DNA of 64,000 nt, from positions 448,001 through 512,000 of the forward strand of contig CBDCFW010000005.1 of NCBI GenBank assembly GCA_965216465.1, in the 5' to 3' direction. The DNA comes from Bacteroidia bacterium (GTDB taxonomy: Bacteria > Bacteroidota > Bacteroidia > NS11-12g > UBA9320). The notes under the pieces are model-generated. The model was not told the DNA's origin, searched no databases, and saw only the letters and a program-made list of their open reading frames with translations. Positions 45,805 to 50,510 of the stretch are shown here, in pieces; position 1 is the stretch's first letter, and every line of letters starts with the position of its first letter. The position numbers and the translations under genes were made by a program.

Positions 45805-46520
45805 CAAAACTTAGTGTTAACATCAATAAGATTGCGACTATCCGCAACGCACGAGGGGGAGAATTACCAAGTGTTGTAGAAGCGGCACGTTCCTGTGAAA
45901 ACTTTGGGGCAGAAGGAATAACCATCCATCCTAGGCCCGATGAGCGACACATTACACGTAAAGATGTTTATGATTTGAGCAAAATCGTCAAAACCGAATT
46001 CAATATTGAAGGTTACCCTTCGAATGAATTTATTGAAATGGTATTAGAAGTTAAACCAACTCAAGTTACATTGGTTCCTGACGGGCCTGATGTGCTAACG
46101 AGCAATGCAGGCTGGGATTGTATCGAACATCAAGAGTTTTTGAACCCAATCATCAAGACGTTTAAGGAAGCAGGCATTCGCGTATCCGTATTTTTAAATC
46201 CTGTTGTTAAACAGGTAGATGCAGCTTTGGCTTGTGGAACTGACAGAATAGAACTTTATACGGAAGCATTTGCATCGGAGTATTCTGCTGACAAAAGCAG
46301 GGCAATTGCTCCTTATGTGAAAGCCGCTGAACGGGCTAAAGAAATTGGCTTAGGCTTAAATGCAGGCCACGATTTAAGTTTAGAAAATTTGAATTATTTT
46401 GCTGCTAACATACCAAACTTGCTGGAAGTTTCAATAGGACATGCACTAATTAGTGACGCACTATATTACGGTTTGAATAACACCGTACAGATGTATAAGC
46501 AAGAATTAAAGGTGGTTTAG
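45801..46520 (+). CDS. pdxJ: Pyridoxine 5'-phosphate synthase
   Basis: LSVNINKIATIRNAR, HPRPDERH, IELYT, NAGHDL, EVSIGHA. Confidence 0.96.
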   Translation: MTKLSVNINKIATIRNARGGELPSVVEAARSCENFGAEGITIHPRPDERHITRKDVYDLSKIVKTEFNIEGYPSNEFIEMVLEVKPTQVTLVPDGPDVLTSNAGWDCIEHQEFLNPIIKTFKEAGIRVSVFLNPVVKQVDAALACGTDRIELYTEAFASEYSADKSRAIAPYVKAAERAKEIGLGLNAGHDLSLENLNYFAANIPNLLEVSIGHALISDALYYGLNNTVQMYKQELKVV

Positions 46521-46855
46521 CGATTGCGAAGCTGCTCGTATACTTTTTCTAAGGTGTCGCTAAGTGTAAAATACAATTCTGGAATTTGTTCAAGGTTGGT
46601 TTCCGTTTTGGCGTTTCCTTCAATTCCTCGTACTACATCATGCAAAGATTGAATTCCCATCATATCGACCGATGGTTTCATTTTGTGTGCTGCAGCTCTA
46701 ACTTCTGCCCAATCTTGTATTTGCAATCCAGCTTCAATGCGAGCTACCAGATCTGGCGTCATGTCTAAAAACATGTTAACCATTTTGGTTACGAAATCTT
46801 CATTACCAGCTGCTATTGTCGTTAGTTGACTTAAGTCGTATAATTTTTCTTCCAT
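46517..46855 (-). CDS. Stand-alone Hpt (histidine phosphotransfer) protein
   Basis: AAHKMKPS..MMG Hpt motif. Confidence 0.88.
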   Translation of the reverse strand: MEEKLYDLSQLTTIAAGNEDFVTKMVNMFLDMTPDLVARIEAGLQIQDWAEVRAAAHKMKPSVDMMGIQSLHDVVRGIEGNAKTETNLEQIPELYFTLSDTLEKVYEQLRNR

Positions 46856-46875
46856 TTATATAATAACCTCAGAAA

Positions 46876-48222
46876 TTAGACTACGCGTTCTTGTAACATT
46901 CTATAAATGGTTGATTTACCAATATCTAGTTTCTTAGCTACATTAACAACGTCGTTATTGTATTTATCGAGGTAGTGCTTCACAATTCTGTTTTTATATT
47001 CTTCGAGAGACATTTCGTTTTGCAACAAGGTGTCGATTGACCCGGTTGAGTTAAACGTAATATGTTCTTCTTCAATTGTATCTGTATCGGTCATTACACA
47101 GCTTAATTCTGTAACGGCTTTAAGCTCTCTAATATTACCCGGCCATGGATATTTGAAAAGTTTATTCTGTGCCTTACTTGACAGTTTAAGTTTACCCAAT
47201 TCATTTTCTTTCGCGTATTCCTCAATGAAGTGTTTCGAAAGAACAAGAACATCATTTCCTCTTTCTCTTAATGGAGGAAGGCTAATTGGTAATCCAAGCA
47301 GACGGTAGTAAAGGTCTTCTCTGAAGTTTCCTTTTCTTACTTCTTCGGCAAGATCTTTATGTGTTGCACTGATTACTCGGCATTTAACTTTTACGGTTCC
47401 GTTGCCACCCACTCGGGTCAATTCTCTTTCTTGAAGAACACGCAGTAGCTTAGACTGCATATTGATATCCATTTCACCAATCTCGTCTAAGAAAATTGTT
47501 CCCTCACCTGCTTCTTCAAACTTTCCTACTCTTCGTGAAACAGCACCCGTAAATGCTCCTTTCTCGTGACCAAACAATTCTGATTCAATCAATTCGCTTG
47601 GAATTGCTGTAATATTTACAGCGATAAATGGCTTTTTAGCTCTTGGCGAGTTGTAGTGCACCGATTTGGCCACAACTTCCTTACCTGTTCCTGTTTCTCC
47701 GGTTATAGATATAGTGATATTCGACTTCACTGCTTTTTCGATCATAGCGAAGACCTTCTTCATTGAAGGACTGTTTCCTATAATGCTCGTGGTAAAGTCA
47801 TATTTCTTCTTAACCTGTTGTTTCAGTTCAGATATTTCTTTACGCAATCCTTCTTTTTCACGAATGTTACGAATGGCGTTCCAAATACGATCTTTGGTAT
47901 CCTCATCTTTAACAATGTAGTCGTAAGCTCCTTCTTGAAGCAAAGAGATCGCTGTTTTAATATCTTCCTGACCAGAAATAATTACAACTGGAATATCAGA
48001 ATTGTATTCTTTAATTTTACGCAATACCTCCTCACCTGAAATATCGGGTAAAGAATAATCGAGGGTAACTGCTCCTGGATTCTTGTCTAGATTCTTTAGA
48101 AAGTCTTCACCATTGGTGAATTTAGTAACTGTAATATCGGGATTGAGAGATAAGTGATATTCAAGGACTTCACTGTAAAATTCATCATCTTCGACAACAA
48201 ATACGCTGAAATTTTCTGCCAT
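46876..48222 (-). CDS. Sigma-54-dependent response regulator (NtrC family: REC-AAA+-Fis HTH)
   Basis: VVEDD, TLDY, GETGTGKE, ELFGHEKGAFTGA, FLDEIGE, WPGNIREL, LDIGKSTIYR; start ATG 48222. Confidence 0.95.
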   Translation of the reverse strand: MAENFSVFVVEDDEFYSEVLEYHLSLNPDITVTKFTNGEDFLKNLDKNPGAVTLDYSLPDISGEEVLRKIKEYNSDIPVVIISGQEDIKTAISLLQEGAYDYIVKDEDTKDRIWNAIRNIREKEGLRKEISELKQQVKKKYDFTTSIIGNSPSMKKVFAMIEKAVKSNITISITGETGTGKEVVAKSVHYNSPRAKKPFIAVNITAIPSELIESELFGHEKGAFTGAVSRRVGKFEEAGEGTIFLDEIGEMDINMQSKLLRVLQERELTRVGGNGTVKVKCRVISATHKDLAEEVRKGNFREDLYYRLLGLPISLPPLRERGNDVLVLSKHFIEEYAKENELGKLKLSSKAQNKLFKYPWPGNIRELKAVTELSCVMTDTDTIEEEHITFNSTGSIDTLLQNEMSLEEYKNRIVKHYLDKYNNDVVNVAKKLDIGKSTIYRMLQERVV

Positions 48223-48241
48223 AACGTGTAGTTTATTGACG

Positions 48242-48281
48242 CAAATATAATCTATTTTTTGGATTTTGTCTAATTTTTGGA
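48242..48281 (-). promoter_or_regulatory. -7 element of the sigma-54 activator gene plus two tandem operator-like boxes
   Basis: TATATTTG on minus strand (48242-48249); TCTATTTTTTGGA (48251-48263) and TCTAATTTTTGGA (48269-48281), 18-bp period. Confidence 0.6.
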
Positions 48282-48346
48282 AATTTCTTTCAAAATTACT
48301 CATAAACAAAATGCTATTTAGAATCAGTCTACATAAGTAGAATATT

Positions 48347-48354
48347 TACATTTG
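48347..48354 (+). promoter_or_regulatory. -7 promoter element of atpDC
   Basis: TACATTTG followed by CA. Confidence 0.65.
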
Positions 48355-48382
48355 CACCACTATAAAATTAAAGCCCATATCA

Positions 48383-50186: not shown

Positions 50187-50190
50187 GCTC

Positions 50191-50221
50191 AAAGAAAAAG
50201 GCCCAAGTAAACTTGGGCCTT
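50191..50221 (-). terminator. Intrinsic terminator on the minus strand (end of candidate sRNA)
   Basis: Minus strand AAGGCCCAAG-TTTA-CTTGGGCCTT then TTTCTTT. Confidence 0.85.
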
Positions 50222-50395
50222 AAATGTCATAGGACAAATTCTTCCGATAAAATCTGGTTACGCTACTACTTTAACTACTTATGGCATCGGAGTACGAGCA
50301 AGACGATCAACTTCGACCTACTAAACAAATGTCTAAGTTAACAAGGTGTCTTAGTCAATTTATCCTAAGATCATTACATTACTAATAAGGTTAGG
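50191..50395 (-). ncRNA. Candidate sigma-54-dependent structured small RNA (~205 nt), family not recognised
   Basis: Bracketed by a sigma-54 box and a terminator; no ORF beyond about 13 codons seen; long-range 5'/3' pairing with G-U pairs on the minus strand. Confidence 0.6.
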
Positions 50396-50405
50396 CCTAA
50401 TAGTA

Positions 50406-50422
50406 TTCAATCCGTGTGCCAA
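50406..50422 (-). promoter_or_regulatory. Sigma-54 (-24/-12) promoter
   Basis: Minus strand TTGGCACACGGATTGAA versus consensus TGGCAC-N5-TTGC; exact spacing, one mismatch at -12. Confidence 0.72.
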
Positions 50423-50436
50423 GAGAAGACATTTTT

Positions 50437-50449
50437 CAAATTGCTGATT
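50437..50449 (-). promoter_or_regulatory. IHF-type bending site
   Basis: Minus strand AATCAGCAATTTG is an exact match to WATCARNNNNTTR, lying between the sigma-54 box and the activator box. Confidence 0.6.
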
Positions 50450-50485
50450 ATCTGCAGTTTACGACAGGACCGCTTTCTCCTAACG

Positions 50486-50510
50486 TCCCAAAAAGAGAAA
50501 TTATTCCCAT
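50486..50510. promoter_or_regulatory. Candidate upstream activator sequence
   Basis: Minus strand TCTCTTTTTGGGA (50486-50498), 11/13 identical to the box at 48251; second TCCCA half-site at 50505; about 90-110 bp upstream of predicted +1. Confidence 0.5.

Follow-up and report, generated by a model that had tools for sequence, protein, structure and literature searches.

The locus and the comparison set

The window analysed here is a 64-kb stretch of contig CBDCFW010000005.1 from a Bacteroidia bacterium (GCA_965216465.1, positions 448,001 to 512,000). It carries an NtrC-type response regulator gene, a stand-alone histidine phosphotransfer (Hpt) gene, copies of a palindromic DNA box and a sigma-54-type promoter that leads into a short stretch devoid of open reading frames (ORFs). 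The genes of interest all lie on the minus strand and atpD and atpC on the plus strand. An initial annotation of this DNA had proposed a Lux-like phosphorelay in which the regulator activates a small regulatory RNA (sRNA). For comparison, 80 loci encoding relatives of the regulator (56–94% identity), each with 6-kb flanks, were drawn from Bacteroidia, Chitinophagales, Bacteroidales and Cytophagales genomes; in the two closest relatives, L001 and L002, the sequence stops inside atpD. The features of the regulator operon, with scores from an operator position weight matrix (PWM) described below, are as follows.

46876..48222, minus strand: NtrC-type response regulator and sigma-54 enhancer-binding protein, 448 amino acids (Pfam Response_reg, Sigma54_activat, AAA_lid_14)
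46517..46855, minus strand: stand-alone Hpt gene, 112 amino acids, His57 in AAAHKMKPS (Pfam Hpt, 42 bits against a cut-off of 24.6)
48242..48249 (minus 48249-48242), minus strand: -7 box TATATTTG of the regulator's sigma-A-type promoter, assigned from the sequence, with TA..TTTG invariant in 11/11 close relatives
48251..48263, unstranded: box 1 TCTATTTTTTGGA, promoter-proximal operator copy, exact match, PWM score 11.2, about -14 to -26 from the inferred start
48269..48281, unstranded: box 2 TCTAATTTTTGGA, operator copy, exact match, PWM score 16.3, about -32 to -44 from the inferred start

The regulator and its probable phosphorelay partner

Pfam matches and the translation together give the regulator a receiver (REC) domain, a sigma-54 AAA+ domain with the GAFTGA motif and a putative C-terminal helix-turn-helix (HTH). 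The receiver domain matches Response_reg over residues 7–110 with 73 bits against a cut-off of 30.2, and judging from its position in the translation Asp55 in TLDYSLPD would be the phospho-acceptor. The AAA+ domain scores 237 bits against Sigma54_activat and has the GAFTGA loop in translation. Several HTH models match residues 38–70 within the last 74 amino acids, where the translation carries the helix IGKSTIYRML; across the loci the recognition helix GKSTIYRM[LI] is nearly invariant. None of the NCBIfam equivalog models was matched up to its cut-off, the best being ntrC with 399 bits (cut-off 558.6), and the LuxO model NF041946 gave 351 bits (cut-off 800).

The Hpt gene lies directly after the regulator gene, as initially annotated, with a gap of 20 nt, and an Hpt match is found downstream of the regulator in 71 of the 80 loci. 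In L044 the Hpt match is the C-terminal end of a PAS-PAS-HisKA-HATPase-REC protein beside the regulator, and in L062 it is fused to a REC domain, again beside the regulator. These fusions support a path from hybrid kinase through Hpt to regulator. The intergenic regions after the kinase-Hpt genes of these two loci were checked as other targets and nothing was found there. A scan of 58 ORFs of at least 110 amino acids in the window returned a single histidine kinase (34165-35199), non-hybrid and with an OmpR-type regulator as its partner. The window does not encode the kinase for this relay, in line with the earlier remark that no cognate kinase is adjacent. Gene order and fusions, taken together, thus support a relay in which Hpt would feed the regulator at 46876-48222, and the proposal that a hybrid kinase encoded elsewhere signals through Hpt gains the same comparative backing.

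A probable operator on the regulator's own promoter

The two boxes that had been reported to abut the -7 promoter of the GAFTGA regulator are present exactly at 48251 and 48269, in tandem, 18 bp apart and directly upstream of the -7 box. In an alignment of close relatives the T, C and GA positions of box 1 are conserved and TC..A....T.GA of box 2 is invariant in 11/11 aligned sequences. Both boxes, together with the TAnnTTTG -7 box, are kept in 11/11 of the closest sequences. In PMC9723704 the -7 consensus TAnnTTTG is placed at -12 to -5, so that boxes 1 and 2 would span about -14 to -44, which is the geometry of a repressing site.

A palindrome is also found upstream of the regulator gene in most of the 80 loci. 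A 17-bp operator PWM was trained on 58 unique sites with the window excluded, and its consensus, TTTCCCAAATTGGGAAA, is a TCYCA-W3-TGRGA dyad, that is, a 5-W3-5 palindrome with an A/T spacer. Of 77 loci, 57 have a site scoring at least 12.5 ahead of the regulator gene, a circular count as the same sites were used for training. The exact pattern TTCC-N7-GGAA involves no trained model, but was picked after the data had been seen; it occurs 27 times in 850,070 bp, with 13 of the 27 copies located within 200 bp upstream of the regulator, mostly 56–61 bp before its ATG. Within the window, the PWM ranks box 2 first (16.3), a site internal to ruvC second (13.5), a third box discussed below third (13.2) and box 1 fifth (11.2). 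In L070, L071 and L080, where the recognition helix reads YRHL, the operator is absent. These comparisons support the interpretation of the boxes as a real operator which would overlap the regulator's own core promoter and be conserved across Bacteroidota, and the regulator itself is the presumed binding protein of the TCYCA-W3-TGRGA palindrome.

Additional elements were seen upstream of the regulator in some relatives. L029, L030 and L034–L037 share a conserved TGAAACAAATAGTT followed about 10 nt on by TCGTA, approximately 180–215 bp upstream of the regulator, with the look of an ECF-sigma-type promoter. An extra operator copy lies about 75 bp upstream of this element in 5 of the 6 loci (not L037), which suggests a second, stress-type regulator promoter in Bacteroidales. 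Farther away, about 2.7 kb upstream of the regulator, operator palindromes scoring 18.6–19.1 are found in L030 (1969), L032 (3252) and L074 (3253), the one in L032 falling within a PMT_2 glycosyltransferase ORF.

A sigma-54-type promoter with an upstream operator copy

Some 2.2 kb from the regulator promoter, a second group of elements lies between atpC and a glycosyltransferase gene.

50484..50500, unstranded: box 3 TTTCTCTTTTTGGGACG, read on the minus strand, proposed upstream activating site, PWM score 13.2, aligning with operator copies of L014 and L019
50503..50519, unstranded: distal half-site that reads ATTCCCA on the plus strand, 19 bp away from the box 3 centre; its counterparts in the alignment are the distal copies of the operator in L014 and L019
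50437..50462, minus strand: conserved block GTAAA-N8-TAATCAG-N4-TTTG containing an IHF-like match, from the alignment with L019
50405..50422 (minus 50422-50405), minus strand: sigma-54-type promoter TTGGCAC-N5-TTGAAT, TTGGCACacggaTTGAAT, from a pattern match, aligning with L014 and L019
50574..51245, minus strand: GT2 glycosyltransferase gene (Pfam), conserved on the upstream side and used as the positional anchor for the promoter

A third box, 11/13 identical and about 90–100 bp upstream of the sigma-54 start, had been described, and such a box is present. Its 13-mer, TCTCTTTTTGGGA, occupies minus 50498-50486 and its centre lies 72 bp upstream of the promoter GG and about 96 bp from the inferred start. 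It is the best intergenic PWM site outside the regulator promoter, the higher-ranked site at 63932 being inside ruvC. The exact IHF consensus noted at 50437-50449, between box 3 and promoter, was likewise recovered as a pattern match, AATCAGCAATTTG (minus 50449-50437) fitting WATCARNNNNTTR.

The promoter has GG at -24 and G at -12/-13, ten bases apart, as sigma-54 promoters require. Its -12 element is TTGA rather than TTGC, with A in place of C, and was compared with mapped promoters of Flavobacterium psychrophilum in 14 rows of supplementary file 3 of PMC9723704, where the label occurs 95 times. In these 14 promoters the base after the conserved -12 G is C in 6, T in 5, A in 2 and G in 1, and the mapped skp promoter reads TTGGCACgatagTTGAATTT, i.e. 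TTGGCAC-N5-TTGAAT. As A stands at that position in 2/14 of these mapped promoters, skp included, TTGA appears acceptable in Bacteroidota. The exact pattern TTGGCAC-N5-TTG has 2 copies in 914,070 bp and the window copy is the only intergenic one; the second, in L040, was rejected since it lies inside an antisense coding region.

Counted within the window, none of these motifs stands out. The box 13-mer (two mismatches allowed) has 8 occurrences where 10.9 would be expected, the sigma-54 pattern (one mismatch allowed) 5 where 3.45 would be, and the IHF pattern 14 where 11.4 would be. Since each motif occurs at chance rate in the window, their more-than-chance status rests only on the comparison with other genomes. 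The concern raised at the outset that the 13-mer might be frequent by chance is accordingly justified by the window counts, while the comparative data back box 3.

One further near-consensus sigma-54 motif, TGGTACcttgaTTGC (48631-48617, minus strand, antisense in atpD and directed toward the regulator), was set aside as explained by conserved codons. Relatives have similar antisense motifs in atpD that stem from the codons of the peptide AIKVPTG / PIKMPIG, and the motif is probably a by-product of coding sequence.

Operator and promoter pairs in relatives

Pairs were counted wherever an operator scoring at least 9 was centred 35–200 bp upstream of a relaxed sigma-54 motif. Among 298 relaxed sigma-54 motifs in 914 kb, 18 had such an operator, these being the Hpt promoters of 10 Bacteroidales loci, L014, L019, the window and five that look like chance. 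In the 10 Bacteroidales loci the palindrome lies 51–82 bp upstream of a conserved sigma-54 promoter in the spacer between regulator and Hpt, leading straight into Hpt; TGGTA.AA...TTG is invariant and the operator conserved in all 9 of these loci that were aligned. The operator-to-promoter distances of 51, 62, 71, 82, 85, 101 and 104 bp are in helical phase only partly. A site at such a distance from sigma-54 promoters implies that its binder must be an enhancer-binding protein. The regulator is the obvious candidate, as its own gene and its partner gene carry the site, and the pairings support an operator that would double as the upstream site of sigma-54 promoters.

The gene order Tal, GT2, operator copies and sigma-54 promoter is common to the window, L014 and L019. 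When the three regions are aligned, distal and proximal operator copies spaced 19–20 bp apart are followed by an invariant GTAA, then by the IHF-like block and finally by the -24/-12 elements. In the GTAAA-N8-TAATCAG-N4-TTTG block 19 of 26 positions, by manual count, are identical between window and L019 at the same spacing, and L014 agrees only in part. Box 3 and the sigma-54 promoter of the window are on these grounds considered orthologous to the L014 and L019 promoters. The L014 promoter precedes a 701-amino-acid protein with a C-terminal sorting domain of the type IX secretion system (T9SS), and the L019 promoter precedes a signal-peptide ORF, then fragmented ORFs ending in a T9SS-type sorting domain. 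In both loci the promoter is 2.2–2.6 kb from atpC, behind this cargo gene. The secreted-protein gene of L019 (1474-3860) is split into overlapping ORFs of 117, 126, 178 and 396 amino acids, reflecting either a decaying gene or assembly frameshifts in a metagenome-assembled genome.

A search for an operator and sigma-54 pair in the 700 bp next to atpC in 15 syntenic relatives returned none, a range too narrow for the L014 and L019 promoters. In a tree built from AtpD and the regulator, L014 is sister to a clade made up of the window and relatives without the cassette. This suggests an ancestral cassette with one or more losses, of which only the promoter persists in the window; the tree gives no date for the loss of the cargo gene in the window, recent or not. 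Overall, the link from regulator to promoter is well supported by these comparisons, as a relationship predicted from sequence.

The GT2 gene itself has an unusual beginning. Its conserved N-terminal motif IVIIPTYNE (51245-51300, minus strand) is encoded in frame immediately behind a stop codon, before any ATG, GTG or TTG occurs, so that a rare start codon (ATT or ATA) is probable. The GT2 homolog of L019 begins MKNIVIIPTYNE.

The putative transcript downstream of the promoter

50190..50396, minus strand: putative transcript of about 205 nt that lacks an ORF, with an inferred start and an intrinsic terminator at its end (no minus-strand ORF of at least 20 amino acids)
50198..50221, minus strand: intrinsic terminator with a 10-bp stem and the tail TTTCTTTGAG, separate from two atpC hairpins

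About 175 nt between terminator and sigma-54 promoter are free of minus-strand ORFs of at least 20 amino acids, and the putative transcript has three attributes of an sRNA, namely its own (inferred) promoter, its own terminator and no ORF. Its predicted fold has an energy of -52 kcal/mol and a z-score of -2.85 with the terminator included. When the terminator is left out z is -1.0 and 31 of 200 shuffled sequences fold at least as well, so the favourable value is due to the terminator and the rest is no better than shuffled sequence. The G+C content of the transcript (36.8%) is near the window average of 38.5%, unlike that of the spacer between regulator and atpD (25%), which counts against an sRNA.

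Homologs of the intergenic region were searched for in the 80 loci, 15 of which have the same gene order, using blastn, nhmmer and tblastx, and none were found. The sole matches were short ones that paired box 3 with operator sites upstream of the regulator in L022, L029, L034, L035 and L077, and the atpC terminator is the one element common to the relatives' intergenic regions. No paralog of the transcript was returned by blastn against the window. Rfam gave no family for the region, either in a search of the whole window or in a permissive scan (to E 10) of 50100-50600, with only weak terminator matches.

These results do not bear out the initial annotation of the product as a regulatory sRNA: homologs and an Rfam family were missing from the searches above, z is -1.0 without the terminator and the orthologous promoters drive messenger RNA for secreted proteins. 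The companion claim that the regulator activates this RNA stands in part, in that the link from regulator to promoter is supported by orthology with L014 and L019. The suggested synteny of regulator, Hpt and sRNA divides in the same way, the order of the first two being kept in 71 of 80 loci and the third having no homolog there. The transcript is therefore taken to be an orphan, lineage-specific non-coding product, and a leftover or a very young RNA is more likely than a conserved, Qrr-like regulator.

Proposed mechanism

A multistep phosphorelay, conserved in Bacteroidota, would have regulator and Hpt as its output end. The phosphate would come from a hybrid kinase encoded at another locus, from whose receiver domain it would move to Hpt His57 and on to regulator Asp55, each transfer step being presumed. 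The regulator, presumably as a dimer, would recognise the 13–17 bp dyad TCYCA-W3-TGRGA. Occupancy of boxes 1 and 2, at about -14 to -44 of the sigma-A promoter, would repress the regulator-Hpt operon. About 2.2 kb away, phosphorylated regulator on box 3 and the half-site would activate the sigma-54 promoter, with the IHF-like block in between. With its coding gene missing, the window promoter would run into roughly 205 nt without an ORF and then into the intrinsic terminator. This scheme as a whole, from the phosphorelay output end through shared operator, autorepression and sigma-54 activation to an orphan transcript, is proposed with moderate confidence.

Several observations weigh against it. 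The distal operator copy in the window is a half-site, the full 17-mer scoring -7.2, and box 3 taken alone is at chance level: 64 kb should contain about 1.3 sites with a score of 13.2 or more, and the site in ruvC scores slightly higher. On the protein side, HTH_8 matches the regulator C-terminus with 15 bits, under the Pfam cut-off of 22 (E 0.02), and L065, L068 and L073 have the standard recognition helix yet no operator upstream of the regulator. L005, L006, L008 and L021 have GT2 and then atpC without operator, sigma-54 promoter or gene between them, so the cassette is dispensable. A decayed coding gene in the 205 nt was searched for by tblastn, with the relatives' proteins encoded between GT2 and atpC and the L014 cargo protein as queries, and with a profile of eight C-terminal sorting domains in six frames. 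No trace was found, which makes a "leftover" origin uncertain too. That the promoter is intact with no gene behind it could just as well reflect selection for the RNA.

The last point leads to the strongest alternative, namely that the transcript is a trans-acting regulatory sRNA, to which a Lux-like chain would lead as its chief product, starting at the hybrid kinase and passing by way of Hpt and the regulator to the sigma-54 promoter. The sigma-54 promoter with its operator and IHF-like block, the one-directional terminator, the absence of an ORF of at least 20 amino acids and promoter elements that are intact though the coding gene of L014 and L019 is gone would all fit such an RNA. Non-coding sigma-54 transcripts do exist in the phylum, as 2 of the 14 F. 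psychrophilum start sites in the rows compared have no downstream gene (PMC9723704). An RNA of this kind would nevertheless be one with no relative in the 80 loci, the 15 of the same gene order included, no paralog in the window and no Rfam family, with a body that folds no better than shuffled sequence and orthologous promoters that drive protein genes. This alternative is a possible but doubtful one. We have similar reservations about the broader notion that the transcript is a working regulatory RNA of any sort. A variant, also tentative, is a newly born regulatory RNA, where the promoter was kept after loss of the secreted-protein gene because the short transcript gained a function.

A different objection concerns the protein on the DNA. 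The palindrome might be bound by another enhancer-binding protein or a global repressor instead of the adjacent regulator, as could be argued from the sub-threshold HTH_8 match, from the three loci that share the recognition helix and lack the site and from the three F. psychrophilum proteins with a sigma-54 interaction domain reported in PMC9723704. The site is, however, tied to the gene pair, being found at the regulator promoter in 57/77 loci and before Hpt in 10, its placement at enhancer distance from sigma-54 promoters requires an enhancer-binding protein and the loci with the altered helix (YRHL) lack it. Another binder is thus unlikely.

It is likewise unlikely that chance alone brought together box 3, the sigma-54-like motif and the IHF-like match and that the terminator simply ends a long GT2 3' untranslated region: each motif alone is indeed near chance rate, the PWM would yield about 1.3 sites of box 3 grade per 64 kb and the spacer at the same place in L005, L006 and L008 lacks these motifs, but L014 and L019 show the same motifs in the same order and genomic position at similar spacing, the operator-sigma-54 pairing is conserved in 10 Bacteroidales loci and the window has the only intergenic exact TTGGCAC-N5-TTG in 914 kb.

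Neighbouring genes

48383..50118, plus strand: atpD and atpC (Pfam), which separate the regulator from the sigma-54 promoter and are regarded as bystanders

As initially annotated, atpD-atpC lies between regulator and target. Among the 80 loci, atpD (atpDC) is divergent to the regulator in 22. The ATP synthase genes of the window are split, with a, b, delta, alpha and gamma at 10545-15517 on the minus strand, about 33 kb from atpD-atpC. A signal recognition particle (SRP) RNA was found at 52049-52142 (minus strand; Rfam Bacteroidales_small_SRP, 78 bits against a gathering score of 55), flanked by a transaldolase-family (TAL_FSA) gene and a carboxyl transferase gene.

Significance

Bacteroidota sigma-54 activators are almost uncharacterised. 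For one widespread regulator-Hpt pair, TCYCA-W3-TGRGA is put forward here as the candidate binding motif, together with genes for secreted T9SS proteins as the first candidate targets. The arrangement suggests a feedback design in which the regulator appears to repress its own sigma-A promoter and, in Bacteroidales, appears to activate Hpt via sigma-54. If the transcript is functional, an sRNA dependent on sigma-54 and an Hpt relay would be added to Bacteroidota, a phylum commonly described as lacking Hfq. Should it be a newborn RNA, an sRNA arising from an orphaned promoter would have been caught in the act, and if it has no function the locus shows an enhancer-dependent promoter outliving its gene. 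In the literature searched, mostly at abstract level, neither this regulator-Hpt pair nor its motif turned up, and no sRNA dependent on sigma-54 was described for Bacteroidota.

Comparison with known systems

The nearest system by phylum is the F. psychrophilum sigma-54 regulon (SM4 promoters), with mapped -24/-12 promoters including that of skp. According to PMC9723704, the regulon includes exported proteins and the gliding adhesin operon, and its promoters have no activator or binding site assigned there.

A regulator acting on sRNA genes is known from the enterobacterial GlrK/GlrR (QseE/QseF) system, in which an NtrC-type regulator activates the sigma-54 promoters of the sRNAs GlmY and GlmZ (PMC3045617). 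GlrK/GlrR differs in having no Hpt step and in its binding sites, and GlmY and GlmZ are conserved and structured whereas the window transcript is neither. IHF is involved in the GlrR system.

In NtrB/NtrC, dyads over a sigma-70-type promoter of glnALG repress and dyads upstream of a sigma-54 promoter activate. The same dual dyad layout is seen here and ntrC is the best NCBIfam match of the regulator. At 399 bits against 558.6 the regulator is nevertheless no NtrC ortholog, its input would come via Hpt and not from a simple kinase, and its targets are not nitrogen genes.

The closest likeness in layout is to LuxO-LuxU-Qrr of Vibrio, where the gene for an NtrC-type regulator is likewise followed by an Hpt gene and the hybrid kinases are encoded elsewhere. 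LuxO represses its own gene. Its site, TTGCA-N3-TGCAA, is a 13-bp 5-N3-5 dyad with an A/T spacer, laid out as here (PMC3352281; Table 1 of PMC10328515). One LuxO site from chromatin immunoprecipitation sequencing (ChIP-seq) lies between qrr1 and luxO in the data given in PMC10328515, and in being shared by the two genes it resembles the shared operator described here. The differences are nonetheless substantial. The half-site is TCYCA here and TTGCA for LuxO, Rfam gave no Qrr match for the window, the target is 2.2 kb off behind atpDC rather than divergent from the regulator, and behind the orthologous promoters lie genes for secreted proteins or, in Bacteroidales, Hpt. With a score of 351 against 800 bits the regulator is no LuxO ortholog. 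The original description as a Lux-like circuit can therefore be retained for gene order and dyad but not for descent, and the circuit, as predicted from its sequence, is Lux-like in layout and not a member of the Lux family.

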